Shown: positions 15,784 to 47,955, numbered from the stretch's first letter. The stretch: DNA of 64,000 nt from a virus (IMGVR_UViG_3300031841_005609:1-64000); one strand, 5' to 3'. The notes: generated from the letters alone by a model not told the origin. Numbers and translations: made by a program.

Positions 15784-17313
15784 ATGAAAATATTCTGTAC
15801 TGCCAGTTCTGATCTTTACATAACAGATAAGATCATCAATGAAAAGATTCGGGCTACTGATGCTAACACAGGAAAAGCTGGAACTTTGGACCTTTTTAAG
15901 CTTTATGATGAGACTGAGCTAACAGGATCTGACAGCCAGAACGAGATCTCTAGATTGCTTGTTAAGTTTGACCTCACCAAACCCAGAGATCTAATAAGAA
16001 AAAATCTCGATGTAAGGCACAAGAGCTTTAGCGCAAAAATAAAGCTTTTTGACATAAGATCAGGTCATGCAACTCCTTCAAGATTTTCTGTCGTAGCTTA
16101 TCCTCTCTCTAGAAGTTTTGAAGAAGGTATCGGAAGAAATATCTCAGAATTCTCCGACCTAGGAGTTTCTAACTTTTTTACTTCATCTATTCAAAACGGA
16201 TCTCCTGTTGCTTGGGCTGTTTCCGGAGCGAACGGAAAGGGAGGGCTTAATACCGGTAACATAGACCTTATAGAATCTGGAACCATCGGTGGCGAAGTCT
16301 TTCAGTTTGGATCATCTCAGTTTTTTGAATCCGGAAACGAAGATCTCTCAATAGACGTAACTACAGCTATTTCAGGCACCTTGATGGGCCACGTTCCCGA
16401 TCTAGGGTTTAGAATATCCTTTTCAGGTTCCGACGAGTCTGATAAAAAAACTAGATTCGTTAAAAGGTTTGCTTCTAGGCACTCTTCGAACCCGTTACTT
16501 CGGCCTAGACTTGAAATATCATATGACGACTCAGTAAAAGACGATAGATCAGAGTTTTATTTTGACAACTTCGGAACTGTTTTCTTAAGAAACAGCAAGG
16601 GGTCTTCTTTTTCTAATTTAAAGGCCGGAGGTTCTCAGATCACCGGAGACGATGCCCTTAAGATAAAAATCAGAAAAGGAAAGTACAGTAAAGTTTTTAA
16701 TGCATCTCAGGTCAAAGTAGGGTCTTATGACTCTCTTGCCACCGGAATATACTCAGCTTCTTTTTCTGTTTCTTCCGAGGATTCAACAGAATATGAAAGA
16801 GGAAAGTCTCTTGCATCTCTTATTGCAAAAGAAAAAGAAGTAGTTTTTGAAGAATTTTGGTTTTCTAATGATGGTACAAAAGGATTTTATACGGGTTCTT
16901 TGACGCTAAAATCTGAGAAAGCTCAGGCTTCTGTCTTCGGAGATGACATCGAAGTTTTTTCAACAAACTGTAGATCTTCTTACTTCACCACAGACAGTGA
17001 CAAGATACGCCTCTTTGGTCTAAATAGAACAGAAGATCAAAATAAACCTAGAAAGAAGTCAATCAAGAGAAGATCAGAAGTTTTTGAAAAGGTTTATTAC
17101 AGAGTTATCGATGCAGATAGTCTAGACGTAATATTTGATTTCGGAGAATCAGATAATTCCACTAGAGTTTCAACTGACGATGAAGGAATGTATTTTAATT
17201 TTCACATGGATGTCCTTCACCCCGGAAGATCTTATGTTTTCGAATACCTGATAATACAGGGTAATCACAGAAGAATATCTAGGGATTCTAAATCTAGATT
17301 TACGGTGAGATAA
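15784..17313 (+). CDS. Baseplate-associated structural protein
   Basis: Directly follows gp6; SRLLVKFD...RPRLEISYDDS (DNRLRE-like beta domain), then an Ig-like C-terminal region. Confidence 0.55.
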   Translation: MKIFCTASSDLYITDKIINEKIRATDANTGKAGTLDLFKLYDETELTGSDSQNEISRLLVKFDLTKPRDLIRKNLDVRHKSFSAKIKLFDIRSGHATPSRFSVVAYPLSRSFEEGIGRNISEFSDLGVSNFFTSSIQNGSPVAWAVSGANGKGGLNTGNIDLIESGTIGGEVFQFGSSQFFESGNEDLSIDVTTAISGTLMGHVPDLGFRISFSGSDESDKKTRFVKRFASRHSSNPLLRPRLEISYDDSVKDDRSEFYFDNFGTVFLRNSKGSSFSNLKAGGSQITGDDALKIKIRKGKYSKVFNASQVKVGSYDSLATGIYSASFSVSSEDSTEYERGKSLASLIAKEKEVVFEEFWFSNDGTKGFYTGSLTLKSEKAQASVFGDDIEVFSTNCRSSYFTTDSDKIRLFGLNRTEDQNKPRKKSIKRRSEVFEKVYYRVIDADSLDVIFDFGESDNSTRVSTDDEGMYFNFHMDVLHPGRSYVFEYLIIQGNHRRISRDSKSRFTVR

Positions 17314-20300
17314 TGTCAAGAAAGATTAATTTTTTCAAAGACTCTTTGTTTAAACCAAGCGTCCTTAGGTCGAGCGGAGGTAGAGAAAGTCTTTCAATTT
17401 CTGACAGCGCTCAGGATTCTTATGGTGCCGTTTATTCTTCTAGCTCCTTTAGGTTCGATCCAGCCGGCGCTGCTCTAAAAAACACTCAGCAGCTAAATGT
17501 AGATTTTTCTAAGTTTGAGAATCACACTTTTTTTAATTCTGCTAAAAACAAAGTACATGTCGCTTTTGAAAAGATCATAAATCAATACCCATTCGACGGA
17601 ACTCGATCAGAATACGAATCTTTTTTTGACAAGATAACTGGTTTTGAGAAGTATGTTTTTGATAGATTTCCCAAGAACACAGGTTTTTTAATTTTTGATA
17701 GAGATGGATCTAGCCCAGGAACTTTTCTTTCCGTGGATGACTCCAGAGGTTCAGGAGATCTAGAGTCTGATAGAAAATATGACGGACAGCCTAGACTCAA
17801 GATAGGTGAAAATCCCTTTACAATTGAGCTTAACATCTTTGTACCAAGCGGATCTGTGAATCACAATGAGGTGATAGCTCAGCGTCTTTCTCAGGGCGCT
17901 GGATACACTCTCGCTCTTTCTAGCTCTTCTGAGTCAGATTCACCCGAAGGTGAGTGTCAACTAGTCTTTATACTCTCAGACGGTTCGAAGTCAGAGTCAG
18001 TCAAAAAGAAAATTACAAAAGGTAAGTTTCATCACATCGCAGCGATATACGATAGGGGAGATACAAACAGGCTCAAGATCGTAAGAAACTTTGATTCAAC
18101 AACTCAGAGTACTGGATCGATAATATTAGATACTATTGACTTTAAAACTACGAACATGCTGATAGGATCGGGATCGAAACACAGTTATGGTAATCTCTCT
18201 TTTGAGCCGAAACAGACTCTCTCGGGAGCTTTGGATGAATTTAGATTCTTTTTATCATCTAGAACACGAGATGACCTCAAGAAGTACGGAGATAGAGAGA
18301 TTTTTGCCCAAGAAGATCTTCAGCTCTATTTTAGATTTAACGAACCTAGTGGGTCTTATAATGCTGCAGGTTTAGGTACAAACAATTTATGTCTAGACCA
18401 CTCAGGGAACGGTTTTCACACTCAGATTTCTAATTTTGATATCAGCCAAAGAGACACTTCTAGGATCGGTGTCGATTCTATCGTTGCTGAAGATCCCTCT
18501 GTGTCTCCTGTTCTTTTTCCTACGTTTGAGTCTGTAAGAAGCCTTTCAAGCGAACTTTTATCTAGTGCTTCGAACTATGACCTTAACAATCCCAACCTGA
18601 TAACAAACTTAGTTCCCAGGCATTACCTTTCTGACGAACAAAATGTAAGCAGTCTCGAAGATGAAGTTGCAGGAAACCTAGAAGGCCAACCCAGAATTAT
18701 TTTTGATCAGCCTGGCGGGAATGAAATACAACAATCACATTTAATTACGTCAATTCTTTATATGTGGGCAGAAACTTTTGATGAGATAAAAATGTTCATC
18801 GACGAACTCTCTAGAATGACAAAAGTAGATTACGACTCAAAAGATACAATTTCAGACAACATGCTGAGCTTTCTTGCTGAGTATCACTCGTTTAACCTTC
18901 CAAGTCAGTTCAATCAGTCATCAATACTTCAGTTTCAAGAAGGAAGAAACGTAACCCTTGAAAAGGCTCAGAAGAACAGGTCACTCCAGGAAATACAAAA
19001 CACTATCTGGAGAAGAATACTATCAGACCTTCCGGAAATAAGAAGAACAAAAGGGACTAGATCTTCTTTAGAGGCACTTTTAAGAAATGTAGGAATCAAC
19101 CCGGGCACTACTTTTAGAATAAAAGAATATGGGGGATCACCTAGAAAAGAAATATCCAACACATACGAAAAAAGAACTCACATTGGGTCTAGGTTAAATT
19201 TTTCGAGTTCATTTAGTCCTCAAGGAACTTTGGACGCTGAGGGAAGAGACTCAAACCGACCGGTCTTAACAACTCCGTTTCTTTCGGCATCTAGAGTGGA
19301 GCCAGGTGAGCCTCTAGCTAGAGGAGTTTTTATCAACGGAGTTAGCAATCAAAAAGGTGACGGGCTTTTTACCAGTAGCTCTTGGACCTCAGAGGCTTTC
19401 TTTTCATTTAATGGATCTCTTCCACACACCTCACCCCAGAGTTTAATGAGAATTCACACAACTGGATCTTCTTCTGGTACAGGTAACAATTGGCTTACTT
19501 TTAATCTGACTGCAGTAAAACCGAATCCGAAGACAGCAAAAACAGGATCTTTAATCTTGTTCGGAAAGCCTGACGGAAACAAAGAAGGAAATCTTCGAGT
19601 TGAGATCAACAACATCGATGTTTTTAACGGAGGTAATTGGTATATATCTTTCGGAAGAGAGGCAAAAAGCTCGAAAAACAATTATGCTTCTTCTTCCTAT
19701 TTTCTCAGAGCAGGCCAGCCAAGATATCTAAAGTCTCCTCTCTTTCGATCAAGTTCTGCTTTTTTTGATGATACTGGTGACAACACAATGAATTCAGTGG
19801 ATTCTTCTTATAATGCTTCTGGGTCTTTTGTTTGCTTTGGCAGCATGAGCTTAGGTTACGATGGATCTTCTGCTCTGAGATTTTTAAATCACGATTCAAG
19901 TTCAAACAGAGTCGACTTTACAGGAAACGTTTCTAATTTTAGATTTTTTTCCAAGGCGCTTTCCAAAAAAGAGTCAATTGCTCACGCCGAGAACCCGAAG
20001 TCTTTTGGCACTATTGATCCTTCTGTTCATTTTAGCTTTAACGAACATGTGACTGGGTCTTTTCAAAGACTACGAGTTGAATATTCTATGAATCAACCGA
20101 GCACTGGATCTAGTTCTTCGGGAGAAATAAACATAACAGACTTTTCTCAAAATAACAGACATGGTAGAGGCACTGGGTTTATACCTTCTTCAAGGGTAGT
20201 TGATCCCGTCAGATATGATCACAGGACAATTTCTCCAAAGCTAGACACCCGCTCCTCAGACAACAAAGTTAGAATAAGATCTTATTTGTCTCCTGAGCTA

Positions 20301-20789
20301 GCCGAAACAGAGGGGTCACGATTAGCCCCTGTTTACGAAATACCTTTAGAGGAAAACCCTAACGACGACAGAAGAGTTGAAATAGAAGTCTCAACAGTTC
20401 AGGCACTTAACGATGATATCATACTTCTCTTTTCTACTTTAGATTATTTTGACAATGCTATCGGAGATCCAGAGCTTGTTTTTGCATCTGAGTACAAGTC
20501 TTTGAGAGATCTTCGAAGAATATACTTTAACAGGCTTACCGACAAGATGAGTCTAATGAAGTTCTTTTCTTTTTTCAAGTGGTTTGATGACACTGTGGGA
20601 GACGTTCTAGAGGATTTAGTACCCAGATCTTCGAAATATATGGGTGCTAATTTCATAATAGAGAGTCATTCTCTAGAGAGGCCCAAGTTTACTTATGCAT
20701 ATACTGATATGTATCTAGGAGAGCTTGAGAGGCCCAACCCGGGCGAAATATTCGTTCAGCAACTTATTGGTATCCTTAAGAAGAGGTAG
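17313..20789 (+). CDS. Large baseplate/tail structural protein with LamG (concanavalin-like) domains
   Basis: FTIELNI, FHHIAAIYD, LSGALDEFRFF, LYFRFNE, and a second FTGNVSNFRFF; also a gpI/gp7-like stretch IWRRILSDLPEIRRTKGTRSSLEALL. Confidence 0.7.
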   Translation: MSRKINFFKDSLFKPSVLRSSGGRESLSISDSAQDSYGAVYSSSSFRFDPAGAALKNTQQLNVDFSKFENHTFFNSAKNKVHVAFEKIINQYPFDGTRSEYESFFDKITGFEKYVFDRFPKNTGFLIFDRDGSSPGTFLSVDDSRGSGDLESDRKYDGQPRLKIGENPFTIELNIFVPSGSVNHNEVIAQRLSQGAGYTLALSSSSESDSPEGECQLVFILSDGSKSESVKKKITKGKFHHIAAIYDRGDTNRLKIVRNFDSTTQSTGSIILDTIDFKTTNMLIGSGSKHSYGNLSFEPKQTLSGALDEFRFFLSSRTRDDLKKYGDREIFAQEDLQLYFRFNEPSGSYNAAGLGTNNLCLDHSGNGFHTQISNFDISQRDTSRIGVDSIVAEDPSVSPVLFPTFESVRSLSSELLSSASNYDLNNPNLITNLVPRHYLSDEQNVSSLEDEVAGNLEGQPRIIFDQPGGNEIQQSHLITSILYMWAETFDEIKMFIDELSRMTKVDYDSKDTISDNMLSFLAEYHSFNLPSQFNQSSILQFQEGRNVTLEKAQKNRSLQEIQNTIWRRILSDLPEIRRTKGTRSSLEALLRNVGINPGTTFRIKEYGGSPRKEISNTYEKRTHIGSRLNFSSSFSPQGTLDAEGRDSNRPVLTTPFLSASRVEPGEPLARGVFINGVSNQKGDGLFTSSSWTSEAFFSFNGSLPHTSPQSLMRIHTTGSSSGTGNNWLTFNLTAVKPNPKTAKTGSLILFGKPDGNKEGNLRVEINNIDVFNGGNWYISFGREAKSSKNNYASSSYFLRAGQPRYLKSPLFRSSSAFFDDTGDNTMNSVDSSYNASGSFVCFGSMSLGYDGSSALRFLNHDSSSNRVDFTGNVSNFRFFSKALSKKESIAHAENPKSFGTIDPSVHFSFNEHVTGSFQRLRVEYSMNQPSTGSSSSGEINITDFSQNNRHGRGTGFIPSSRVVDPVRYDHRTISPKLDTRSSDNKVRIRSYLSPELAETEGSRLAPVYEIPLEENPNDDRRVEIEVSTVQALNDDIILLFSTLDYFDNAIGDPELVFASEYKSLRDLRRIYFNRLTDKMSLMKFFSFFKWFDDTVGDVLEDLVPRSSKYMGANFIIESHSLERPKFTYAYTDMYLGELERPNPGEIFVQQLIGILKKR

Positions 20790-20791
20790 AG

Positions 20792-22078
20792 ATGTCTAGC
20801 GTTAGAATACTAAGCGGATCTTTAACTAAGGGATCTATTTCTTACGATATAAATGAGGAAGGCACTCTTAGTGGATCTCATGTGTATGGAGCAGAGGCGT
20901 ACGCTGACGGAGCAAATCTGAGAAGTTACAATCAGATCTTTCGAAGAGTGATGATTTTCCCCAGACCAAACACATCAGACAAGCTTCTCGTTGGTGGAAA
21001 GCCCATAGGAATGAAGTACGACGACGGAATTACTCCAACTTCTCCTCGTCGTCAAAAGTTTTCAAAGTACTCTGTTTGGGGAAAGCTCTATGACGCGTCC
21101 CGATTTCCTGGATCCACCAGAATAGATTCTACTACTACTTTTCTCATGACTGTTCCGCCTGGTTTTCCCGGCGGCGGATTTTTTCTTACAAGAGAAGTTG
21201 TCAACACAGAGACTAAGATTTACGTAACTCCTGAAGAGGCCACTGACGATCAACCTTACGGCGACTTAGTTTTCGACGTAGTTGCTGAGCTCGAGCAAGA
21301 TCCCTATCATCGAGTTCAAGTAAGATATAATCCAATACTTTCTACAATTTCTTTTGTAGCCCATAAATTAGGAGCAAACCTCGACGTCGGAACCCTTTTT
21401 ACAGGTCAATCCATATTTCAAGCCGACACTAAGAAAAAAATAACGCAGGTCATAAATCACGAAATGGAGCAGAGAGACATAGGGTATCCCGCTCTCTATG
21501 ATGACGGTCTCCCTTTCAAGGAGGAAATCGCCCCTGAGAATCCTGTAGAGCTTGTAAAAACACATCCGCAAAATGTTTACCTACCTCTGACGCTAGTAGA
21601 TCCTGGAAATGCTCTTTCCATGAACGGAGTTTTAGAACCCCTAGGCATAAGAAGCAACATTGACATCTCTGGTCTTGAAATTCCTTTCACCACAAGAGGC
21701 TTGAGAGGAACATTGGGATCTGGTGAAGATGTTTACAGAAACAGTGTGGTGATCTCTGAAGGTTATAATGATGGTGATCCAAAGGTTGTTCCTTTCCTAG
21801 ATGCTGTTGAATACTTTGGGCCTGTTGAGCTACCGCCTGTGTTCGAGCCAGATGAAACGCAGATTAAGAAATTTTCGGACACAAGTCACATGAGAGAGAT
21901 ATATTTCGAAAAGAGAGCAAAAAAAGGCGTGAACGTCTCCCAAGATTTTAGAACTGTCTTGATAAGCGGTTCTTTCGATACTTCTGATTTTGAGTCATTC
22001 GATTACGAAGGAACCAGAGGTACTCAATATTTCGGCGGCGGAACAGATTCCATAGTTTACGGAGGCTTGAAGAAATAA
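20792..22078 (+). CDS. Hypothetical virion structural protein
   Basis: Within the baseplate operon; AGAGG SD; translationally coupled to the next gene. Confidence 0.55.
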   Translation: MSSVRILSGSLTKGSISYDINEEGTLSGSHVYGAEAYADGANLRSYNQIFRRVMIFPRPNTSDKLLVGGKPIGMKYDDGITPTSPRRQKFSKYSVWGKLYDASRFPGSTRIDSTTTFLMTVPPGFPGGGFFLTREVVNTETKIYVTPEEATDDQPYGDLVFDVVAELEQDPYHRVQVRYNPILSTISFVAHKLGANLDVGTLFTGQSIFQADTKKKITQVINHEMEQRDIGYPALYDDGLPFKEEIAPENPVELVKTHPQNVYLPLTLVDPGNALSMNGVLEPLGIRSNIDISGLEIPFTTRGLRGTLGSGEDVYRNSVVISEGYNDGDPKVVPFLDAVEYFGPVELPPVFEPDETQIKKFSDTSHMREIYFEKRAKKGVNVSQDFRTVLISGSFDTSDFESFDYEGTRGTQYFGGGTDSIVYGGLKK

Positions 22079-25000
22079 TGCCAAAAGCAGGATCCAGCTT
22101 AACGTATGACTTACTAAGACAGATGAACTCACCTTCGGGTTTTTCTTATACGGCTTACGACTCTTTGTATGCTTGGTATAAGTTTGACGAAACCCTGACA
22201 GCTTCAGGAGAACTTACTGATTATTCCAACAACTCTAGGGGCATTGGCCCGAAGAATGACTCATCTTTACTAACGCCCGGAGCTCCTACTAGCGATTCTC
22301 CTTTCTTGAAGTCTTTCGATCGGAAATCTATAAATTTTGCCAACGATCTCTTGGTGAATGACAATGACTCTGATTTCGTTCTAGACGAGGGGTTCACAGT
22401 TGCAACTTGGATAAAAGTCGACGCATTCTCCGGGACGCACGTAGCAGCTTATCAAGGAAACGCTACTGGGCAGCCTGAGACTGCCGGAGAGTTTTCTTTT
22501 GTACTAAAGGTTGGGAAAGGAATCTATTCAAACCCTTCAGTTGATCTTTTCATAGGCGATGCTTCGAACAATGGCGAAATCTACGTAAGGTCTAATTACA
22601 TAGCCTTGAACACTTTCGATTCAGATAAGTGGGTTCATGTCGCAGCTTCTTACGACGGAGGAGATAATCCCGATTCAATATCTCTCTATCTTAACGGAGA
22701 AAAACTAGGCATCAGAGACAGAGGAGAAAACAATTTCACTAGCATGACCGGACCTTCGGGCGGAAGGTTCTGTGTAGGTAATTCTTTTGGAGGCTCTACA
22801 AGCTACGATTTCGATGGATCGTACGCAGAACTAGCAGTCTGGTCAAAAGTTCTAAAAAGCTCCGAGATTTACGGAATCTACTCACTTTCTCAAGGTGCAT
22901 TCTTACCCACTTCGGGAATTTTGACAAATCCAGTTCGAACTATTATAAGAGAGAACGATTATAGAACTGGGTCTTACCCCACTAACTTGAGGACTGGTGA
23001 TCCTGATTTTGTTGGAAACAGAGTCGTAGAACCTTACAATGACAGAAACACGCTTGATTTTAAGACAGGCTTTCCCAGGGGAAAGATACAAATAAAAACA
23101 GGTATAGATTCGATGGAAGGTTACGTTTTTGGGCTTACTGGATCTAACGGAACCACCAAAGAGTTTGAGGTAATAAGAGCCTCCATTCCAAACCCAGCCG
23201 GCGGCTTTTATGGGCTTAGAAGGGTTTTAAATGCTACTCCTGTTTATGTCAATCCAAATAAAACAAAGCTTACCGATTCTCTAGGAATGACGCCAGGAGG
23301 AAATCGGCACGTCGCCTATATGCTTTCTGTCTGTATTAATAACGATCCTGACCTAGAACTGAAAGCAGAGCCAGTAAGCGGCTCTGTTTATATGCAGAGC
23401 ATCAACGGAAAGAGAAACGTAGACTCGAACGGAAGAATATCGGTTTACAATCCTTTAATGGGTTCTCCCAAAGACAGAGACTATAAAGTAACAAACTTTG
23501 TTCGGGATTTTACAACAGTTAATGCTGCTACGAAGCTCACTATAAGCAGCCCGTTTGATAGAAACAATATTAGTACCCCTAACTCTCTGCCGGATATCAT
23601 GATCGAAGGAGGCATTTTACCAGGAATATCAGATCATGGAATTCACTTCTCTCCTGGAGAAAACATTAGTCCATTTGATGACAGAAAGTACTCAATAGGA
23701 AGTACTAAGTACTACGAGGAAGGAACTCCTGTTTCTATTTTACCTGGATTTTCTTCTCCCTTGAGTTCTAAAACTCAGATAGTCATAAATCTAAGTTCTT
23801 CAAATGGTCCGAATGGAACTGGAACAGCTTTGTATTTTGCAACTGGAGTAAACGGTGACGGCGCCCCAGCCGAAGCCGGTCCCGAAGGATTGTATCATCC
23901 AGAAATAACGACATCTTCAAACGCACCCGGATTTTCTTACTGGGATGATGTTCTTAAAAAGTGGACTTTAAAAAAAGAGATAGTCGATCCCCCGGGAATA
24001 TCTTTGGCCTATACAACAGCTGGGATACCCTTGAACAGTCTTATGTCGTACACCCAGGCTAGAATTTTTGGATACAGAGGTTTCACAGCACCTGTTTACA
24101 TCGACCATCCCTTGAGTGATAGCAGCGGAATTACAAGCCAGACTCTGGATTATTACCGACTTACAGCTGGCGAGATATCAAATGAAACTATAGTTAGAAA
24201 AAAGATAGACCGATTAAAGAGTTGTGCCCAGCCCACTGTTTCTCTGCAGTTTCCACTAGGGATGCAATATCAACCCTCCGGATCTCAGTACATAGAAATG
24301 AAAAACAAGATTGGAACTCCTTTTCTTGTTGAGAAGATCAAAGTCGATATCGATGTAAATCTGGGTATTTCAAGCAATCAAGATCTTGAAACAATAGCAT
24401 TTAGAAAGTTTTTCATTCTTTGTCAAACAAACGAACCAGAAGGAAAAGTACCCGAACAGAAAAATCAAATACCAATATCTGAGACGTGGTATCAAAGAAG
24501 TAAATCTTTCTTAAGAGAAGGACTTTCTCAAGGGTACAGAGAGATAATCACTTACGGCAGAATCGGAGTTGCAAACGTAGCCAACAACTATTCTAGCTCG
24601 AGCCTATATAATGATCTTAAGAATTCTTTTGACGCTTTTGTCACTTACACAGGAGAAGATCAAGCACGACTCGGCGTCACCTCTAGCTTGAGTCTGGAAA
24701 TAGAGCCCAGAGTTGCCGAGAAACAGTCCATGGCTGGTTTTTTTACAACTTTTTCTGCTAATGACTACAGCAATGCTGGAACCAGCCCGCTATCCACTAC
24801 TGCTTGGCACTATGATAGAGACTCAAATCCAGGAGGTCCAGCTTTAAATGGAAGAGCATCGGGTAGACACTTAGGCCCTTCCCTGGAAGCTTCTGATATC
24901 GATCCCAATAACGATCCTCTCGTTGTGACTTCTTTAGACTCATCTACTGCTTCTTTTTTACCTAAGAAGGAATACTTTAAGACGTCACCCTACATGATCT

Positions 25001-26460
25001 TTCCTTCGGATAAGCTGATAATTGGCTGGGAAAACATCCCAGAGTTTTACTCTTCTCTCCAGGAAGTAAAAGACAATGCTGAAGAGATGGTCGACAGAAT
25101 CAAAAACTTAAAGATAACTCTTTTCGGTTCACAGGTTGTAGGAGGGGTTGAGCATCACGATACTTCAAACCAGCCCTTGACATCGCCTGGCATTCACGAG
25201 GCAATACTCGGTGATCCTGTCGTCGACAAGTGGGACGTTGAACCTTTGATCACCATGACTGGATCGATCTACGACGCCAATGTTTTCGGATCAATGGTGA
25301 ACAATCATGAACCCTCTGGTTCTGAAAGAGGAGTAATAAGTTCGAAAACAAAACAGTACGTCTCTCTTCGAGATCCAAGTAGTTCGAATACAACTGCTGT
25401 GAAGATAACAACCAGTTCCTTCAGCAGAACAGTTCCTTTGGTCGACAATAACGTTGTTTACTACGATTCAGCTGTTCCACCCCCTGGGGCTTTTCTCTCT
25501 GAGATCTTACCGTCAAATACTCTTGCGGAAAGAAAGACAGTAGGTTCTATTGTTAGATACGGACTACAGCTAAGTACTGCCGCCGGCGAACCTACAAGAA
25601 GAGCTGCACCTTTCTTAGGTCTCTTCAATGACCCAGAGATTAATGCCTCTAGAAACAGATTTTTACCATCAAATCCCTTTCTCTACAAGGGCAAAACAGC
25701 ATTTAGAAGAGCTTCTGACGGTTCGAACAGAAGATTCAGCAATCTTTTCTTCGAGGACAGAGTATTTTCAGGATCTTTTCAGAGAATCCACGGAGTTTCA
25801 GTAGGTTCTACAAGTCAGCGTCAAAACAGATCTTCTTATACTTCTGAGCCAAGTGGAAGTGTACCTCTAAAAGTAGTTTCATTTGCATCTCCGGTCCCTG
25901 AGGATCTTTTTCAAAATGTTTTAATCATGAGGAAGCGCCATAGAAGAGAAGTCGCAATTAGAGAAACAAGAAGTCTGTACAACACACTTTATGGAATTCC
26001 AAAATATCTAAGCGATGGTTCGATAAGATTTCCAGTTAGGCCCGCCGGAGCCTTTGGCGTGACTGATAACATCGAGGGTTTCAAGTATGGACTTATGAAC
26101 ACCACACCGGTCTCACCTGTATATCATTTTTCTAGAACTTCTCATGGCAACTTTAGAGACTTGATGTTCTCACCTCCCGAAGGAATGATGAGAGGTCTCT
26201 ACAAGGTTCTCGATCCAGAAGATATCGTTGACGGAAAGCGAAAATCCGGACTTGACGAAGAAGGAAGTCCTGTTAGAATTAGATTTGTATCAAGAGCCGG
26301 CGAACCCGACGTAGACCCTAGAACTACAAATGCTCAGAATCTTCATAAGTTTTCTTCTTCTTCTTTCCCTTATTTTGACGAGATATCAAAGGACAGGGAT
26401 GTTGTTAAGAGTCCTCCTCCTGATGGAGATCTTGAGTCTTATGAAATTGAATTTGAGTAA
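22078..26460 (+). CDS. Large virion protein with N-terminal LamG domain
   Basis: AWYKFDE, FTVATWIK, WVHVAASYDG, LYLNG and FDGSYAELAVWSKVL. Confidence 0.7.
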   Translation: MPKAGSSLTYDLLRQMNSPSGFSYTAYDSLYAWYKFDETLTASGELTDYSNNSRGIGPKNDSSLLTPGAPTSDSPFLKSFDRKSINFANDLLVNDNDSDFVLDEGFTVATWIKVDAFSGTHVAAYQGNATGQPETAGEFSFVLKVGKGIYSNPSVDLFIGDASNNGEIYVRSNYIALNTFDSDKWVHVAASYDGGDNPDSISLYLNGEKLGIRDRGENNFTSMTGPSGGRFCVGNSFGGSTSYDFDGSYAELAVWSKVLKSSEIYGIYSLSQGAFLPTSGILTNPVRTIIRENDYRTGSYPTNLRTGDPDFVGNRVVEPYNDRNTLDFKTGFPRGKIQIKTGIDSMEGYVFGLTGSNGTTKEFEVIRASIPNPAGGFYGLRRVLNATPVYVNPNKTKLTDSLGMTPGGNRHVAYMLSVCINNDPDLELKAEPVSGSVYMQSINGKRNVDSNGRISVYNPLMGSPKDRDYKVTNFVRDFTTVNAATKLTISSPFDRNNISTPNSLPDIMIEGGILPGISDHGIHFSPGENISPFDDRKYSIGSTKYYEEGTPVSILPGFSSPLSSKTQIVINLSSSNGPNGTGTALYFATGVNGDGAPAEAGPEGLYHPEITTSSNAPGFSYWDDVLKKWTLKKEIVDPPGISLAYTTAGIPLNSLMSYTQARIFGYRGFTAPVYIDHPLSDSSGITSQTLDYYRLTAGEISNETIVRKKIDRLKSCAQPTVSLQFPLGMQYQPSGSQYIEMKNKIGTPFLVEKIKVDIDVNLGISSNQDLETIAFRKFFILCQTNEPEGKVPEQKNQIPISETWYQRSKSFLREGLSQGYREIITYGRIGVANVANNYSSSSLYNDLKNSFDAFVTYTGEDQARLGVTSSLSLEIEPRVAEKQSMAGFFTTFSANDYSNAGTSPLSTTAWHYDRDSNPGGPALNGRASGRHLGPSLEASDIDPNNDPLVVTSLDSSTASFLPKKEYFKTSPYMIFPSDKLIIGWENIPEFYSSLQEVKDNAEEMVDRIKNLKITLFGSQVVGGVEHHDTSNQPLTSPGIHEAILGDPVVDKWDVEPLITMTGSIYDANVFGSMVNNHEPSGSERGVISSKTKQYVSLRDPSSSNTTAVKITTSSFSRTVPLVDNNVVYYDSAVPPPGAFLSEILPSNTLAERKTVGSIVRYGLQLSTAAGEPTRRAAPFLGLFNDPEINASRNRFLPSNPFLYKGKTAFRRASDGSNRRFSNLFFEDRVFSGSFQRIHGVSVGSTSQRQNRSSYTSEPSGSVPLKVVSFASPVPEDLFQNVLIMRKRHRREVAIRETRSLYNTLYGIPKYLSDGSIRFPVRPAGAFGVTDNIEGFKYGLMNTTPVSPVYHFSRTSHGNFRDLMFSPPEGMMRGLYKVLDPEDIVDGKRKSGLDEEGSPVRIRFVSRAGEPDVDPRTTNAQNLHKFSSSSFPYFDEISKDRDVVKSPPPDGDLESYEIEFE

Positions 26461-26486: not shown

Positions 26487-29400
26487 ATGTCAAAGCAATA
26501 TATTGATAAGAAAAAAGCAAAAAAAGCCAAAAAAATAGTCGTCCGAAACAGAAGTGGAGAGGTCACCAACACTGTAATTCCCGGAGGTCTTTCAGTTGGT
26601 GTCAAGGGAGAAAACGACGGACTCACTGTTTACGGAGAGTCAACCTTCGAAGGCACCATCAACGCTGAAAGAATCTTAATCGATGGTTTACCTGTAGAAT
26701 CCTCAGCCACCGCCGGCGCAAACTTTTTCTTTACAACAAATATTCTCACTGTTGAAGCAACACCTGACTATGCCTATCCGGCGAACGGAGCCGACTGGGC
26801 GACCGATTTTAGCGGCGCGCCCAGTGCCAAGATGGACGGATCTTTATCGTCAGGAACTAGGCTCACTACACCAGGCAACGACTATTCGAATACTTCTCTT
26901 GGTGGGGACTCTAATATCGATACTAACGAGTATCTTGTTGATGGTTCGAACGCAACTGCTGAAACTGATAAAGGGACCTCTCTCACCGTCTCTCTAGAGG
27001 GACATGACGATCTTTCTCCCAACGACTTTAGAATCAATATGAAAAGGGGTTCTAAGACAGTAGCTGCCCTTCGAATAACAAAAGACGTTGGTGGAAATCA
27101 AATTCTCACGCTTGTAGATTTGACACAGCACGAGGATGAGTCAAACTCAGATACATTTGCCAGCATATCAGTTGCCATTCCATACAAGTTGAATCTAGGT
27201 TCGGGTATAGTTGACCTTACAAGGGTTCTTGTGATTCAAAAGCTCATCGGTGGTTCTGATGGCTCTGATGGGGCTGACGGCTCGGATGGAGCCCCTGGAG
27301 CAGACGGAAGCGATGGTTCTGCAGGAACCGACGCAAGAGCAGTTCACTTAACTGTTTCTTCTGGGAAAAACGTAATAATATACGATCAAGACGGTGCTAA
27401 TCCCTCGCCTTCCTCGATCACGATTTCTGCGACTGATCAGAATGTTCCCGATGGAACAGATGCAAAATTTAGATTTCTTTTAAATGACTCGGAAGTTCAG
27501 TCTTCTTCAACGACTTCAACTTATACTTTTAGTGCTCCTTCCTCAATAGAGGACTCTTCTCTTCCTTTAAAGTTCGAAGTAGAGCTCAGGGAAGGCGATG
27601 GTTCTACAGTCAAAGCTACAGATCAAATAACAATCCCGGGCGTTAGGGATGGTTCTGATGCATATACTGTAGTTTTGGAAAACGAAGCTCACACGATACC
27701 TGCAGATTCGAGTGGAACTGTAATTGATCCGGACGGATCAGGAGATCTAACAGGATACGAAAATTCTGGCACAAAGATTGTGGTCTATAAGGGATCAACT
27801 CAATTAACAGGTCTAACTGCAGGAAGTACTCCTTCTACCGGACAATATGTTGTTGCATCATCAGTTCAGCAAGGCACCATCACGGTAGGATCGTACACAG
27901 TAAATTCAGACGGCGATGTTGTAATACCAGATCACTCTTCCTTTACATCTGAGACTGCTATCATCTCTTACACGATTAACGCCGAGGGTTCTGCAAACAT
28001 CACCAAGTTGCAGTCCTTGACAAAATCCAGAAGAGGTGTAGACGGAGTCGATGGTGCAAACGGATCAGACGGCTCGGACGGAGCAGCAGGTAGGACTGTT
28101 AAGCTCACAACCACACACCAGGCGATCGTGTACGATGCCGCAGAGGGCAATCCAGTTCCAGACGGAGAGTCCTCTGGTCAGCTAGTAACAATCACTGCTA
28201 CGGCGATCAACTCATCTGGAACACCTTATTACAGATTTTTTAAAGATGACTCCGTAGTCCAGGGAGGTTCTTATGGAGGTACTGACAACACATACTCTTA
28301 CGTCCCGGAATCTTCTTATGCTAATATGCCCGACAAGATCGAAGTAGAACTTAGAGAGGGAAACACAGCAGACGATCCGATCTTAGCCAGAGATCAGATA
28401 ACGATCTTTGGTCTTAAGCCAGGAAATGATGGCTACTCAGTACTGTTAGGAAACGAAGCCCACACTATTCCAGCCAATGCTGACGGAACGTTCGAATCGG
28501 GTGCCTTTGCTGGGTCTGGAACCACTCTAAACGTTTTCAAAGGTACAACTCAACTTAAGCACACGACAACCTCTAACGCAGGGTCTGGGTTCTACAGATA
28601 TGCTGTGAGTGCAACCAACATATCAGCTGACGGGTCTCCTGATACTTCTTCTAGCATATATGAAGTTGTCTACGGAGATGCTGCTTCCGCCGGAGATGAC
28701 TCTGTGGATAACGATACTGCCTCCATAGAATTTACAATCTACGCCGAAGAAGGTAGTGCTGATGGCGCTACGATCACAAAGACGCAGACTTTCTCTAAAT
28801 CTAAGAGAGGTAATAATGGTACGAATGGAGCAAATGGTACTGACGGTAAGACAGTAAAGCTTTCTGTCTCTTCGGGCAAGCAAGGTATTGCTTATTCTGC
28901 CGCCGGCGGCTCTCCCGACCCTAGTAGCTGCACTATTCTTGCTACTAGATTTGGCCCATCGGTCGGTGCTGGAGATTCTGTTTTTTATCGATTTAAGATT
29001 GATGGCGTTGTCCAAGGATCAGGTTTTACATCCGGAGTCGGAGCCAATGAGCTTGATTACACTCCTCCTTCAAGCTATGATGATATGCCAGATGCAATTC
29101 TTGTAGAGATGGGAGAAGGAACAAACGCATCAGACGCCGCAAGCAATGTAGTTGCTCAAGACGAGCTCACCATGTTCGGGCTGAAGCCGGGAGAGAACGG
29201 AGAAGATGCTTACACAATGATTCTGACCAACGAGTCTCATTCGTTGCCAGCAGTAAGCACCTCTCCCACAGACGCAGTCTACACAGGTTCCGGAACAACT
29301 GTTCGAGTATACAAGGGCACAACAGAACTGACAGCTGTTACGTCTTCTCCGGGCGCTACTGAATATACCGTAGTTGCAGAAGGGACAAATATTGACCCGA

Positions 29401-36715: not shown

Positions 36716-36722
36716 TCAAGAC

Positions 36723-43353: not shown

Positions 43354-43379
43354 TAGTTTACCGATACTAGAGAAGCAAT

Positions 43380-43424: not shown

Positions 43425-43435
43425 AGGAGACATCA

Positions 43436-44137
43436 ATGGGATTTTTAGATCATTCCACTAACAACATTATAATAGACGCAGTTTTAACAGATAAGGGCAG
43501 ACAGCGTCTTGCTGAAAATAACGGACAATTTAGCATTCAGTTCTTCTCTCTTGCCGATGATGAAGTTGACTACGGAATCATAAAGAAGTTTGGAAGAATA
43601 GTCGGCAAAGAAAAGATCGTAAAAAACACTCCGATCTTCGAAGCGCAGACAAAACAAAATTCAGCGCTTAAGTACAGGATGCTCACTCTTCCTGACCCTA
43701 CTATCTTTAAGATGCCTTCTATGTCTCTGGTTACTGTCAACACCTCAAACGTAGTTTCTTTTTCTGGGACAGTAGTAGGTGGAAATTTAGCGACTCAAAA
43801 CATTGTAATAAAACAGGCTATCGGGAACGAACAGGATCTTCCTCCGAATCTAAACGATTCTTCTTACACTGTCTATGTCAACGACAGGTTTGTGTCCGTT
43901 TCGGGTAACCCTCTAGGATCTCCGGATCCGATGACGAAAATAAGAGCTTATACAGTCTTCTCTGAAGACACAGGCACTGTAAGCTTTGATATAGAACCAG
44001 TACCAACAAATCAACTTACTTCTACTGTTTTTGCCACATATGGAGTTTCAGGAACAATAACAACACCGGTTTCTGTAGTAGGTGATCAAACAGGTCTTAG
44101 GCTTGATTTTAAAGTTGCAATAAGCCAAGGAAGCTGA
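43436..44137 (+). CDS. Virion structural protein
   Basis: Strong SD; IIIDAVLTDKGRQRLA...FFSLADDEVDY...TPIFEA resembles a family seen in large myovirus baseplate regions. Confidence 0.6.
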   Translation: MGFLDHSTNNIIIDAVLTDKGRQRLAENNGQFSIQFFSLADDEVDYGIIKKFGRIVGKEKIVKNTPIFEAQTKQNSALKYRMLTLPDPTIFKMPSMSLVTVNTSNVVSFSGTVVGGNLATQNIVIKQAIGNEQDLPPNLNDSSYTVYVNDRFVSVSGNPLGSPDPMTKIRAYTVFSEDTGTVSFDIEPVPTNQLTSTVFATYGVSGTITTPVSVVGDQTGLRLDFKVAISQGS

Positions 44138-44170
44138 TTTTTCTAAAGTCGAATTAGGAGCAAAAAAAAG

Positions 44171-45403
44171 ATGGCAATAGCAGGCGGCAGTTTTAAGAAG
44201 ATATCGCCCAACGATATTAAAACCAGACAAACAACCTTGAATCAACTGGTTGATGTAATACAAGAAGATGTCTCAGGATCCAATACTCGACGAAAATACC
44301 AAGTCTTTGTTACTGGCGGCGTCGGCCCTGGAGTGACCAGCTCTCTTTATCAGACAGTTTACGACCAGAACTTTACTCTTCAGACAGCAAACCCAATATT
44401 TGACATGACTGTGGGAATCAATGAAAACTCTTCTACAGTCACAGGAAATGCATCAGAGGATGGTTCAACGAAAAAGACTTTTCCTTCTTCTTCACTCATG
44501 ATGAGAGAAAAGATCGATATCTATCGACAGCACGCAGCATGGCTTCTTGGCAATGCAGATTCTCAGTTTAAAGCTCCGTTTGGAAATTCTGATGCTTCGA
44601 CTATAAATCACGCTCTCTTTCTCGACATAAAAAGGCTTTTCTCTAGAGATGGATTGAAGCAAAACACGTTTGCAGCAAAAATGTATAGATCTGCGTCACT
44701 GGTTCTTTCGGGAGGCATGCCTCCTAACCTATGGACCACTTCTGAGCTAGGATCTACGATCTTTACAGATAATCCTGCCGTTACAACAGACTACCAAGGT
44801 TCGAAAGTAGGAGACATCAAGAATTCAGCAAATGCTAGTGAAGAAGCAGTTGGATTGATCTTCTACGACAAGGGTGCGGTTGTCCTAGACATGGACAAGG
44901 TTTTCTCAGGATCTCAAAGAATGTCCGGCACTATGAAGGCCATGTCAAACGTATCATCTGTGAACGGAGACACAGTCTCTGCTGGATATACCATCCTAGG
45001 AGCTAAAGGCACTGCATCTCCTGCTGCGAAATTTATACCTGACTTTTTGGTTTCTGGATCCGTCGATCAGATAATTGATCACATTGCTTCTACCCGATTC
45101 TCTTCGGGAAGTTTGACTTCCATGACATTCCAAAACAAAACTAGTATTAACTCAACATTGATCTTCTGTAGAGCAACAGCCGACGAGTTTAACTACTCTT
45201 CGAACCCCACATTTACAGACGAGAACGGAAACATCGTCGTAATAGACGAGGCTCAAAATGAAATTCAGAGATCCTTTACTTTTCCAACAACTGTAGGTCT
45301 TCACGATCAGTTTGGCGACACCCTCGCAGTTGCAAAATTCTCTAGACCAATAGAGAAGAATGACGAAAAAGACATAACTTTTAGAATTAGACTTGACTTC
45401 TAG
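44171..45403 (+). CDS. Baseplate/tail-fibre attachment protein
   Basis: C-terminal EFNYSSNPT...TVGLHDQFGDTLAVAKFSRPIEK...RIRLDF (tail-collar/DUF3751-like motif). Confidence 0.6.
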   Translation: MAIAGGSFKKISPNDIKTRQTTLNQLVDVIQEDVSGSNTRRKYQVFVTGGVGPGVTSSLYQTVYDQNFTLQTANPIFDMTVGINENSSTVTGNASEDGSTKKTFPSSSLMMREKIDIYRQHAAWLLGNADSQFKAPFGNSDASTINHALFLDIKRLFSRDGLKQNTFAAKMYRSASLVLSGGMPPNLWTTSELGSTIFTDNPAVTTDYQGSKVGDIKNSANASEEAVGLIFYDKGAVVLDMDKVFSGSQRMSGTMKAMSNVSSVNGDTVSAGYTILGAKGTASPAAKFIPDFLVSGSVDQIIDHIASTRFSSGSLTSMTFQNKTSINSTLIFCRATADEFNYSSNPTFTDENGNIVVIDEAQNEIQRSFTFPTTVGLHDQFGDTLAVAKFSRPIEKNDEKDITFRIRLDF

Positions 45404-45456
45404 AAGTTTAACAAGAGACCTCTTCTCTATGCGAATCGCTTCTAGGAAAAAAGGCT

Positions 45457-47955
45457 ATGTCGATCATAAAATTTTCACGTGACAACTTCGAAAATTATGA
45501 ACTAGTCGCTCGACCTGAAAAAGTATTTAGATCATCTTCTGACGGAGGCCTAGAAGGAGATATTCTTCTCATGAAGGATGCTTCTCCGAGCCTGAAAGAT
45601 ATTTCTAGAAAAGAAGTCGTAACAAGCTCCATAAAAAAGGGGAAGACCTGGAAAGGTCTAAATCAGTATGATGATTCTGTCTCCGATAGTTTCGTAGACC
45701 TTTTTTCTGCAGGAGGTCCTGCATCAGAAGAAGCCCTTAGACTTGTAAATCAGACAAAAACAGGTCTCAGATACAGAAAGCGTCAGGAGATTTTCAGGAC
45801 TATTCCAGGGACTCAGTTTAACAAAACTTATCTTAAGAAAAGAGTTGTCAAGAATAACTTAATGCCTTACTATAGAGCGTTCTACGAATCTATGGAGTGG
45901 GCTTATACAAACTATCATTGCTTAAACTTTTTTGAAAACACTAACGTTCCTTCTGAGTCTGCTTTGATCTATCCTGCTTTGACAGAATCGTCAGGAGAAA
46001 GTTCATACGCTCCTTCCTCCAGTTTTACGATAGAGTTTTACGTAAAACCGAGAGAAAACAGTGATGCTATAAGGGCAGGCTCAGAAGTTTCTCCTGGAAC
46101 GATACTTCACATGTCATCTTGCTATGCGGTCAGTCTTGTTACAGGTTCTTCTACTGGTCCGGACGGAAAGCCTGATGGGTATAGAGTATTACTTCAACTA
46201 AGTGAAAGCGCGGACATAAACCCATCTAATTGCATAGTCTCAAGTAATCAAGTGTCTGCGGGGAACACGAGCTGTGACAAGAGCTTCATATTCGCCTCAT
46301 CAGACAACTCTCTTTCTAGAGATGTTTGGAGTCATGTTGCAATAAGGTGGCCCGGGTCGTCTAACAACATGGGATCGGGTTCTTTTGTAATTAACGGAAA
46401 GAAAGATTCTGATTTTGTAATAACATCTTCTATTGTCATGCAGACAACCACATCTATTGGCTCTAACCTAGGTAATCCTGATGCTGTTTTTATCGGAAAC
46501 TATTTTAGCGGAGAAAATTCAGGAAACTCTACAATCGCTAGGTTCTTTAACAATACTGCAGGAAGAGACGAAGGTGTTTCTCCGATCCTCAGTGGAGCAC
46601 TAGGCGATATCGCAGATCCCGTTGGTTTCAAGTTCACTTCTCCTCTAAGGGCTGAGCTTCACGAAATAAAGATATTTGATAAATTTAGAAGCTTGCCCAA
46701 TATCAACAAAGATATGAAAACCGGCGTGAGCAAGATCGGATCAAGTCTTAAGTTTTATGTACCACCTTTCTTTATAAAGGAATCTAGAAGGAGAAACATT
46801 CTTCAGACTCCGTTTTTCACAGAGGTCGGTAAGACTGATGATCCTTTTAACATTCCTCTTTCTTTTGGACTTGGGTCTTTAGACATAAACGTCGAAAATT
46901 TCGTGAGAGAGATGGTTAAAAAAGAGTACCCAAGGCTCTGGAATTTAACAGCATCTGCTGACAACTCAGTAGCTTACGAAGAGGGGAAGACTTCAAACGA
47001 TGTAATCTATGGTCGACAGGGTTCTGCTAGAAAAAGGTTGAGAACAGTAATGCCCTGTGATAACGGAATGTTCTATCCTGACTTTTCTTTTTTAAAGACT
47101 GGATCGAACAGCTCGAGCAAGTTCACAGACAGCTATGGTTCTACTAGACTTGACCTAATAAGTCTGGAATCTATGGTGACTCCTAGCACTCTGTTAAAGG
47201 ATCTTGCCATCTTGGACGACTCTATATCTAGGACTCCCGGAGGAGATGGTTCTTTAGTGGGGGGACCTGCCTGGGGACAGATATCTGACGAAGGTTCCTC
47301 TCCTTTCGGCCCGAAATACTTTTTAAATGATCTTGTCGGAGCAAACCCACAGGACCCATCACTAGCCCCGGGAGCAATTCTTTCAGTCCTGCAAAGAACT
47401 GGAGACCCAAGCTCGAGTGAAGTTGTGATGTTTGATATATCCAATATGTTTTACGGAGATTCGATCACACCAGGCTCTCTTTTGATAGAAGATTTAGCAC
47501 CAACGGGATCTGAGGGAAGCTTTACTTTAAAGGTAAGAGATAACTCATATGGTAATCTATACAGGGCTGATGTGAAGAATCCCGAGAAGGCAGCAAGGTG
47601 GGCGTCTGTCGGTAACGTTTTTTACGAAGAAGGAATCGTGCTAATCAAGTCTCCTCATCTAGCTTTTTTCGGAAAAGAAGACTTTAGAATAACTTTCAAG
47701 GGAGAGAAAACTGTTTACGTTCTCGAGATAATTGTACCAGTCGAAGCTTCAAAGCATAATTCCTCATCAAACCCCACATACAAAGATCTGTCTCCCACAG
47801 ACTATTCTAACGAGACCTCCAGAAAATTTACGTACATATCGTCTATTAACTTACATGATGACAATCTTAATGTTATAGGGAAAGCAAATTTAAGTCAGCC
47901 TTTCTTGAAAAGAAACGAAGACAAAGTCGTCATAAAGTTAAGGATGGATTTTTGA
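45457..47955 (+). CDS. Baseplate protein with LamG-like domain, C-terminus paralogous to 44171..45403
   Basis: FTIEFYVKP, WSHVAIRW, ELHEIKIF; C-terminal NSSSNPT...INLHDDNLNVIGKANLSQP...KLRMDF. Confidence 0.6.
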   Translation: MSIIKFSRDNFENYELVARPEKVFRSSSDGGLEGDILLMKDASPSLKDISRKEVVTSSIKKGKTWKGLNQYDDSVSDSFVDLFSAGGPASEEALRLVNQTKTGLRYRKRQEIFRTIPGTQFNKTYLKKRVVKNNLMPYYRAFYESMEWAYTNYHCLNFFENTNVPSESALIYPALTESSGESSYAPSSSFTIEFYVKPRENSDAIRAGSEVSPGTILHMSSCYAVSLVTGSSTGPDGKPDGYRVLLQLSESADINPSNCIVSSNQVSAGNTSCDKSFIFASSDNSLSRDVWSHVAIRWPGSSNNMGSGSFVINGKKDSDFVITSSIVMQTTTSIGSNLGNPDAVFIGNYFSGENSGNSTIARFFNNTAGRDEGVSPILSGALGDIADPVGFKFTSPLRAELHEIKIFDKFRSLPNINKDMKTGVSKIGSSLKFYVPPFFIKESRRRNILQTPFFTEVGKTDDPFNIPLSFGLGSLDINVENFVREMVKKEYPRLWNLTASADNSVAYEEGKTSNDVIYGRQGSARKRLRTVMPCDNGMFYPDFSFLKTGSNSSSKFTDSYGSTRLDLISLESMVTPSTLLKDLAILDDSISRTPGGDGSLVGGPAWGQISDEGSSPFGPKYFLNDLVGANPQDPSLAPGAILSVLQRTGDPSSSEVVMFDISNMFYGDSITPGSLLIEDLAPTGSEGSFTLKVRDNSYGNLYRADVKNPEKAARWASVGNVFYEEGIVLIKSPHLAFFGKEDFRITFKGEKTVYVLEIIVPVEASKHNSSSNPTYKDLSPTDYSNETSRKFTYISSINLHDDNLNVIGKANLSQPFLKRNEDKVVIKLRMDF

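Follow-up and report, generated by a model that had tools for sequence, protein, structure and literature searches.

Several predicted outer virion proteins encoded in a 64,000-nucleotide stretch of viral DNA (IMGVR_UViG_3300031841_005609:1-64000, the whole of which is referred to here as the window) carry an excess of the tripeptide [ST]GS, and we found that this excess is genuine and characterizes the whole clade to which the virus belongs. The motif is ordered, limited to particular virion proteins, conserved, and co-distributed with a glycosyltransferase that we call GT4b. A sequence-only reading of the window had proposed the tripeptide as a recognition sequon for O-glycosylation or another modification by enzymes encoded at 1-9.7 kb. 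A glycosylation sequon is also our best reading of the data, which we hold tentatively and at slightly under an even chance.

The window derives from a distant T4-like myovirus, with genes for a gp23-type major capsid protein (MCP) starting at 62554, a gp20 portal at 54827, a T4-type large terminase at 53206 and an S77 prohead protease at 57563. Its substantial open reading frames (ORFs) are all on the + strand, and the source record is a 106-kb IMG/VR contig with a CheckV completeness of 38%. The closest cultured relatives are Flavobacterium phage immuto, Microcystis phage Mel-JY01 and Rhodothermus phage RM378, which share ~30-43% identity with the virus in MCP and portal.

An ordered tripeptide in outer virion proteins

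We recounted [ST]GS in each protein and compared the count with the mean of 2000 composition-preserving shuffles (p values are upper tail unless stated); every hand count given by the sequence-only reading proved exact. Seven of the proteins that it listed, named here by the first coordinate of their genes, are identified as outer baseplate or fiber-associated proteins from gene order, because their genes come after those for the gp25-like and gp6-like inner baseplate proteins (13395..15780). The gp25-like protein at 13395 has a GPW_gp25 Pfam match of 23.6 bits, under the curated cut-off of 27.2, and PHROGs gave 0 matches for ten structural proteins. Four of the seven are individually significant: 17313 (17313..20789, 1158 amino acids) with 9 motifs against 2.08 expected (p 0.0005), 22078 (22078..26460, 1460 amino acids, a baseplate or fiber-base protein) with 8 against 2.65 (p 0.004), 44171 (44171..45403, 410 amino acids) with 4 against 0.75 (p 0.0045) and 20792 (20792..22078, 428 amino acids) with 3 against 0.48 (p 0.0135). 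The other three are 45457 (45457..47955, 832 amino acids; 4 against 1.63, p 0.072), 15784 (15784..17313, 509 amino acids; 3 against 1.05, p 0.083) and 32860 (32860..33894, 344 amino acids, 3′ of the fiber gene; 2 against 0.47, p 0.083). The gp23-like MCP copy 1 (62554..64000, extending beyond the window end; Pfam Gp23 2e-34) is mildly enriched, with 3 motifs against 0.86 expected in the part within the window (p 0.052) and 3 against 0.94 over its full 622 amino acids. Laminin_G_3 domains were found in three of these motif carriers, namely 17313, 22078 (4e-17) and 45457, the last just below the Pfam cut-off.

Elsewhere in the window the motif is scarce, with one copy each in a 1594-amino-acid ORF and in Mre11-Rad50, and none in the terminase, the portal or the gp25-like and gp6-like proteins, the last two of which are internal negative controls. 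The placing of the motif in "core virion proteins" was imprecise, since the MCP and the outer baseplate or fiber-associated proteins carry it while the inner baseplate proteins, portal and terminase do not. The 2104-amino-acid fiber (26487..32801), Ser/Gly/Thr-rich yet motif-poor, is depleted (1 [ST]GS against 5.6 expected, lower-tail p 0.024), which fits the claim that composition does not explain the pattern; the shuffles and the reordered controls given below bear this claim out. The fiber contains SGS 0 times, TGS once, SGT 10 times and DGS 13 times, with D-G-[ST] at 18 against 4.0 expected. Its SGT and DGS tripeptides are near-miss variants of the motif and could mean that the motif is avoided in a receptor-binding fiber, or could reflect repeats within fiber modules.

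Beyond the window the carriers are MCP copy 2, the tail sheath and an 1172-amino-acid protein. The two gp23-like genes are in tandem (62554-64422 and 64688-66637, the second beyond the window); the 3 motifs of copy 1 all fall at residues 136-213, and copy 2 has 5 against 0.86 expected (p 0.002), at residues 160, 292, 374, 376 and 483. The sheath (70922-74077, with a Phage_sheath_1 match just under the cut-off) has 4 against 1.0 and the 1172-amino-acid protein (74119-77637) has 6 against 1.25 (p 0.002). Further downstream, ORFs of 1446, 1128 and 1000 amino acids have 0-1 motifs.

Taken by itself the window makes a weak case for the excess, because both the motif and the protein set were picked after looking at it and because, without selection, [ST]GS comes no higher than rank 270 among 76,000 degenerate patterns over all 45 window ORFs (43 against 26.3 expected, p 0.0017); it ranks first only inside the seven proteins that the sequence-only reading had chosen. 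This rank, together with the three of seven proteins that are individually non-significant, is what post hoc chance, a compositional artefact or low complexity would predict. Against such an origin, the seven proteins also exceed a conservative first-order Markov expectation (33 against 17.7, p 8e-4), and their motif sites are dispersed and lie outside Ser/Gly runs.

The signal is real because the motif, once pre-specified, replicates in independent data. IMG/VR yielded 302 relatives of the 1158-amino-acid protein, from which 80 loci were taken, and 175 relatives of another baseplate protein; counts were made on homologues less than 70% identical to the window (n = 17-79 per family). Members of the 15784 family have a mean of 5.7 [ST]GS against 0.9 expected (n = 79) and those of the 17313 family 10.6 against 1.9, while the 20792, 22078 and 32860 families exceed composition by 4.5x (n = 22), 3.4x (n = 20) and 5.5x (n = 17), such that the five baseplate families span 3.4-6.2x. 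The gp6-like and gp25-like families (n = 79 and 72) stand at 0.2x and 0.4x expectation, and families of the GT4-type glycosyltransferases described below at ~0. Reordered tripeptides of equal composition (S[ST]G and GS[ST]) reach ~1-1.8x in the baseplate families, and [DN]G[ST] shows no real excess at 1.1-1.3x. The excess is concentrated at ~10 recurrent alignment columns per family (7 in the 15784 family and 11 in the 17313 family), and Ser/Thr within the motif is more conserved than other Ser/Thr (0.73 vs 0.45, p 4e-4). Enrichment over composition shuffles, which the sequence-only reading had proposed as a check, was found in four window proteins and again in the homologue families.

Proteins encoded after gp6 in immuto, Mel-JY01 and RM378 have no BLAST match to the window baseplate proteins, yet show the same excess. 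A "tail spike" of immuto has 26 motifs against 5.9 expected, the Mel-JY01 proteins have 4-11 each against 0.4-1.4, and the RM378 block at 64.8-76 kb has 21 against 3.8. We also ranked all 8000 tripeptides without bias on blocks set by position alone, after the gp6-like gene. SGS ranked first (29 against 3.7) and TGS second in Mel-JY01, TGS first and SGS seventh in RM378, and SGS third and TGS fourth in immuto. SGT and TGT are not enriched in these three blocks, and position 3 is therefore Ser-specific in the three cultured phages. Replication of the pre-specified motif in independent genomes reached p values down to 9e-17. Chance, composition and low complexity are effectively refuted by the homologue families, the genome-wide scans and the 8000-tripeptide scans, with reordered controls at ~1, and we regard such an origin as very improbable.

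Additional motif-rich ORFs were seen in two of the cultured phages. At 635-5916 of the Mel-JY01 record (W03), two Ser/Gly-rich ORFs of 805 and 508 amino acids have 37 and 13 motifs, and the 1234-amino-acid ORF that comes next has a second GT4b-like domain (profile E 1e-21). Outside the baseplate block of immuto (W04), a 373-amino-acid protein (135075-136196) has 12 motifs against 1.26 and a 709-amino-acid protein (147026-149155) has 7 against 1.28. Between the 17313 family and its counterparts in Mel-JY01, immuto and LR756508, a 484-kb uncultured phage, only the helical core and the C-terminal third align, and a TGS-F site is common to Mel-JY01.

Residues and structural setting of the motif

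Across 37 recurrent columns the middle residue is Gly in 85%, Ala in 6.5% and Ser in 6.3%. Position 1 is Ser or Thr in 93% (Ser 63%, Thr 30%), and position 3 is Ser in 73%, Thr in 16% and Ala in 6%. The "many SAS/TSS/TAS variants" of the sequence-only reading are only mildly enriched in the window, but they are the usual substitutes at conserved motif columns. Where the middle Gly is replaced, the replacement is Ala/Ser in 86% and Asn/Asp in ~1%, compared to 22% Asn/Asp at other semi-conserved Gly columns; this points to a need for a small residue and not for a positive-phi turn. Hydrophobic residues are overrepresented at both flanks, positions -1 and +1.

Models of two carriers were made with AlphaFold2 (AF2). 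The model of 17313 (pLDDT 76.5) matched LamG-like domains in Foldseek, in keeping with the LamG/ConA-like domains and helical core assigned to this protein from Pfam, AF2 and Foldseek, and the all-beta model of 15784 (pLDDT 86) matched carbohydrate-binding modules (CBMs) and Ig/MG-like arrays, indicating CBM-like and Ig-like sandwiches. In the two models some motif sites directly follow a strand and others directly precede one; one forms a tight two-residue hairpin, another is within a strand, and others are found where a helix passes into a strand or in long loops. By the secondary structure in the DSSP strings of the models, most sites are at strand ends or in loops and one is within a strand. 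The sequence-only reading had named burial or a structural turn as refuting its proposal; the absence of a single fixed turn common to the sites did not refute it. The carriers as a whole span unrelated folds, including LamG, CBM-like and Ig-like domains, the MCP, the sheath and the immuto spikes.

Such settings raise the possibility of a lineage-specific structural or folding motif, a strand cap or strand-to-loop junction in beta-sandwiches that passed down by descent, spread as domains were shuffled and is read by no enzyme. The strand-end and loop positions and the hydrophobic -1 and +1 residues would suit such an element, as would the location of several sites in conserved blocks that include the canonical LamG "F.F.E.xGx" and "F.G.ID", the general enrichment of x-G-[ST] (with Asp, Asn or Glu first in the fiber) and the confinement of the enrichment to ~10 fixed columns per family with no turnover. 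However, the settings are heterogeneous, extending to the inside of a strand and to the end of a helix, and Gly gives way to Ala/Ser and not to Asn/Asp. Position 3 strongly favors Ser over Thr in three outgroup lineages, the T4 baseplate has no motif, and the motif-bearing families show no enrichment of [DN]G[ST]. Moreover, non-homologous proteins in four lineages converge on one tripeptide, and most sites are lost in the LR756508 orthologues. We consider a purely structural origin rather unlikely. A tag read by an enzyme would fit better than a folding element because of the ordered specificity, the Ser at position 3, the small middle residue, the unrelated folds and the restriction to the outer virion.

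Two narrower structural candidates were rejected. A two-residue Gly beta-turn (type I′/II′ hairpin) describes only 1 of ~18 sites (15784 residues 299-300), and Asn/Asp replacement is at ~1%. The LamG signature "F.FDE.sG"/"l.iG", or a generic Gly turn, was ruled out by the non-LamG folds, the varied secondary structure and the replacement of Gly by Ala/Ser, and is further opposed by the preference for Ser over Thr at position 3, the lack of a [DN]G[ST] excess and the lack of any signal in T4. Several motif Gly residues do coincide with canonical Gly residues of Laminin_G_3/concanavalin-A-like domains, which 17313, 22078 and 45457 carry; the Ser/Thr flanks, however, are no LamG feature, as LR756508 has N-G-D at the corresponding site, and proteins that lack LamG (15784, the MCP, the sheath and the immuto spikes) carry the motif too. 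At residues ~304-306 of 17313, in the canonical LamG strand "F-x-G-x-I-D-E-x-R", the family has S-G-S or S-G-A and the window has S-G-A.

A signal at the level of DNA, in which GGATC or Dam-type sites are read in frame as Gly-Ser, would be favored by the use of GGATC in 26/48 motifs of the window genome and by the abundance of GATC (436 in the 64-kb window). That abundance is close to the Markov expectation of 404, and although the top 4-kb bins for GGATC fall in the motif-rich block, the site occurs throughout the window. None of 45 motifs in Mel-JY01 uses GGATC, and motif codons vary in all lineages. This codon variation between lineages refutes the DNA-level explanation, to which we assign a negligible probability.

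A GT4 glycosyltransferase pair and its co-distribution with the motif

Upstream of the baseplate genes are two adjacent genes for GT4-family glycosyltransferases, GT4a (7301..8557; Pfam Glycos_transf_1 4.5e-17) and GT4b (8530..9720; 1.4e-9). Each has a Glycos_transf_1 (GT-B) C-terminal domain, at 62.6 bits in GT4a and 38.1 bits in GT4b against a Pfam gathering cut-off of 26.4. The EX7E motif (E-G-F-G-x4-E) is at residue 286 of GT4a, where it is kept in 19/20 homologues, and at residue 282 of GT4b, where it is kept in 32/37. Neither protein has a transmembrane-like segment, which points to soluble enzymes. Genes for the pair are present in 36/36 related loci that reach at least 9.5 kb upstream, in the order PD-(D/E)XK nuclease, GT4a, GT4b, three ORFs, gp25, gp6 and the motif-bearing proteins, and GT4a has a median identity of 61% among relatives compared to ~40% for the baseplate proteins. 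Homologues of GT4a were found in immuto, Mel-JY01, LR756508 and RM378; in immuto and Mel-JY01 the pair and the baseplate genes are widely separated. Solved structures that are closest to GT4a include BshA-type GT4 enzymes and B736L of PBCV-1 (PDB 3oy2; E 2e-8, residues 191-407), and tblastn gave weak matches for GT4b in Arthrobacter, Streptomyces and Microbacterium phages, with whose glycosyltransferases it shares 23-31% identity.

In the seven genomes examined, the presence of GT4b tracks the motif. A profile search (profile A3) matched GT4b in immuto, Mel-JY01 and RM378 (p014), where the ORF adjoins GT4a, as well as in a complete IMG/VR genome (G002), and gave no match in LR756508 or in T4. 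In LR756508 the ORF that follows GT4a is unrelated to GT4b, and after it come a cytidylyltransferase and a GT29 sialyltransferase. Genome-wide motif scans, made without prior selection, found 65 motifs against 34.4 expected in the window genome (5 ORFs at p < 0.01, one of them 44171), 108 against 42.1 in immuto (8 ORFs), 132 against 49.1 in Mel-JY01 (10 ORFs) and 44 against 17.2 in RM378 (4 ORFs). LR756508 has 90 against 66.4, or 1.36x where reordered controls give 1.23x, with 1 ORF at p < 0.01 and 2.5 expected by chance. T4 has 12 against 22.7 with no ORF at p < 0.01, and its structural proteins have 2 motifs against ~9 expected, with none in the baseplate. The contrast is therefore between five GT4b lineages that are enriched and two phages lacking it, of which T4 is not enriched and LR756508 is reduced, though not to zero.

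A tree built on the portal nests LR756508 in the clade of four pair-bearing phages with support of 97/96; rooting on gp6 failed, because the gp6 family hidden Markov model does not reach T4 or RM378. The three alignable baseplate proteins of LR756508 have 0, 2 and 3 motifs, where the orthologue means are 4.1, 9.1 and 5.3 and the minima 1, 5 and 3, and its recurrent motif columns hold mostly other residues or gaps. Among IMG/VR relatives of its gp6-like protein, 41 with enough downstream sequence are 2.6-9.3x enriched (684 motifs against 133 in total, 5.1x), and the single complete genome among these relatives carries GT4b; incomplete contigs in which GT4b was not seen are uninformative. Within the window's own clade there is no contrast group, as 36/36 loci carry the pair. 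These comparisons suggest that the LR756508 lineage has lost GT4b and, though some remain, the greater part of its tags. The outcome in the two comparison phages without the second transferase is as the sequence-only reading predicted, with no excess in T4 and the lowest counts among orthologues in LR756508.

We favor glycosylation because of this association with GT4b. The proposed tag is [ST]-G-S, in its extended form [ST]-[G>A,S]-[S>T], often hydrophobic on each side, and it would be read by a phage enzyme on outer virion proteins. The most likely reader would be the soluble pair at 7301-9720, which would work in the cytoplasm either ahead of virion assembly or while it proceeds, with GT4b as the protein whose presence follows the motif and GT4a as a candidate partner or extender. 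The pair would place a sugar on the Ser or Thr of the tag, the Ser at position 3 being the best candidate acceptor, and the neighboring Ugd, two short-chain dehydrogenase/reductase (SDR) proteins, Maf-like protein, sulfotransferase and methyltransferases could supply and elaborate the glycan. That the transferases act on protein, like the choice of residue and the identity of the sugar, is what we infer from sequence. Of the enzymes at 1-9.7 kb to which the sequence-only reading had assigned the sequon, only the GT4 pair is tied to the motif by the related loci, most of which end before reaching the counterparts of the genes at 1-6.3 kb, and attachment itself is a prediction.

Several observations weigh against a glycosylation tag. 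The most exposed protein, the 2104-amino-acid fiber, is depleted, which is awkward for a coat expected on exposed parts. The hydrophobic flanks fit a strand-edge setting and, with the strand-edge positions, also suit a structural element, which keeps that explanation alive; some motif Gly residues are canonical LamG glycines, and the F-x-G-x-I-D site reads N-G-D in LR756508. The loss in LR756508 is partial, since it retains two sites that are invariant in one family, and the 10 kb that directly follow gp6 hold 5 motifs against ~1.55 expected, a reduction and not an absence. The co-occurrence of motif and GT4b amounts to one loss event and one distant outgroup, which shared ancestry could explain. 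GT4a persists in LR756508 despite few motifs and no GT4b, and the pair could instead act on DNA, lipid or polysaccharide.

These last points also bear on the possibility that the tag is read by another factor, such as a kinase, phosphotransferase, acyltransferase, ADP-ribosyltransferase, assembly chaperone or host enzyme, and that the GT4 pair has an unrelated job, for example the glycosylation of DNA or polysaccharide. The sequence-level evidence for a tag that is read out applies equally to such a factor. In addition, a nuclease adjoins the pair in every lineage, and GT4a is kept beside PD-(D/E)XK in LR756508 though the motif has eroded there. The window nuclease (6398..7261; Pfam PDDEXK_1 1.7e-23) lies just upstream of GT4a, as it does in the IMG/VR relatives and immuto, with one short ORF between the two in LR756508; in RM378 a 5′-3′ exonuclease occupies the nuclease position beside the GT4 genes. 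On the other side, the presence of GT4b tracks the motif in the seven genomes examined, and no alternative candidate was found in the conserved synteny, where the ORFs at 10007, 10742 and 11119 are uncharacterised. We judge a different reader to be unlikely.

In its widest form, our glycosylation proposal is of a clade-wide, sequon-directed O-glycosylation of virions in aquatic distant-T4 phages, whose cultured hosts are Bacteroidota, Cyanobacteria and Rhodothermus. The GT4 pair would add the first sugar to Ser of [ST]-G-S in proteins of the outer baseplate, fiber, sheath and capsid surface, interchangeable sugar islands would build lineage-specific glycans, and proteins such as the 2104-amino-acid fiber would stay unmodified by avoiding the tag. 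We offer this fuller scheme as a possibility that falls somewhat short of an even chance.

Known glycosylation systems and neighboring sugar genes

Virion glycosylation by phage-encoded glycosyltransferases is established in the mycobacteriophages Che8, Corndog and Myrna (PMC12363180, describing Freeman et al. 2023, Cell Host Microbe 31:1216). The system proposed here would resemble theirs in its phage-encoded glycosyltransferases, presumably cytoplasmic, with virion proteins as the proposed acceptors, and in the conservation of the transferases with virion genes, which in our loci takes the form of a fixed synteny ahead of the baseplate operon (36/36). It differs in that attachment is experimental in the mycobacteriophages and is read from sequence here, and in that those phages are actinobacterial siphoviruses and myoviruses, whereas these are aquatic distant-T4 myoviruses. 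We know of no defined tripeptide tag in mycobacteriophage virion glycosylation, and full-text literature searches gave nothing on this motif and nothing relevant on "Far-T4" with glycosyltransferase.

Chloroviruses glycosylate their capsid with virus-encoded cytoplasmic glycosyltransferases (PMC9614988, PMC5408694). The likeness lies in the virus's own sugar-nucleotide enzymes and soluble transferases, which there decorate the capsid independently of the host, and in the proximity of B736L to GT4a; that similarity, however, is only at the level of the generic GT4 fold. Chloroviruses are eukaryotic viruses with atypical N-linked glycans on Vp54. Another comparison is GtfA-GtfB of serine-rich-repeat adhesins, a two-protein, cytoplasmic O-GlcNAc transferase that modifies Ser in short Ser-x-Ser-type repeats and in which GtfB is non-catalytic. 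Two adjacent GT-B proteins make it a plausible working analogy for a GT4 pair that would read [ST]-[GAS]-S, but EX7E is present in both phage proteins, the tags are dispersed single copies in folded domains and not long low-complexity repeats, and GtfA and GtfB are absent from the PDB sequence-search matches of GT4a and GT4b. Maf (PF01973, MptE-like) puts nonulosonic acids on Ser/Thr of cytoplasmic flagellin in Campylobacter and Helicobacter, where flagellin is without a defined sequon. The window has an MptE/Maf-like gene by Pfam (2840-3661), but the related loci, most of which end too early upstream to include it, gave no match to this gene, and it is not the one that tracks the motif.

If the proposal is true, [ST]GS would be, to our knowledge, the first defined sequon for phage virion glycosylation, and virion glycosylation would be found not only in actinobacteriophages but also across a large, uncultured group of myoviruses from water; the tripeptide tag, the conserved GT4 pair and the phage group would each be new. 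Sugars coating baseplates and capsids would matter for how marine and freshwater phages adsorb, aggregate, are grazed and decay, and lineage-specific glycans would be a phage counterpart of O-antigen diversity. Because immuto, Mel-JY01 and RM378 are cultured and carry both pair and motif, the prediction is testable by mass spectrometry. If the motif is structural instead, it would still be a striking lineage-specific sequence habit and a marker for outer virion proteins that match no PHROG and almost no Pfam family.

Sugar genes next to the transferase genes suggest a variable island, because the kinds of gene differ between phages. Beside PD-(D/E)XK and GT4a, immuto (L081, 48008-59988) has a GT2, WecE aminotransferases, a methyltransferase, a mannosyltransferase and an epimerase, and LR756508 (L089, 300435-311718) has the cytidylyltransferase and the GT29 sialyltransferase. 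In the window, Pfam assigns the genes at 733..6339 to a methyltransferase, a sulfotransferase, an ORF without assigned function, the Maf/MptE-like protein, a UDP-glucose dehydrogenase and two SDR epimerase/dehydratases, which are candidates for supplying or elaborating a glycan; the 80 related loci, most of which do not extend this far upstream, gave no homologues of these enzymes. The Ugd-like ORF (3674-4510) and the first SDR ORF (4434-5393, TTG start) share 77 bases, and the real SDR start may be further 3′. In LR756508, the portal gene (L093, 145346-150061) is matched by tblastn as four separate pieces over 3.5 kb, which suggests insertions such as inteins, introns or homing elements.

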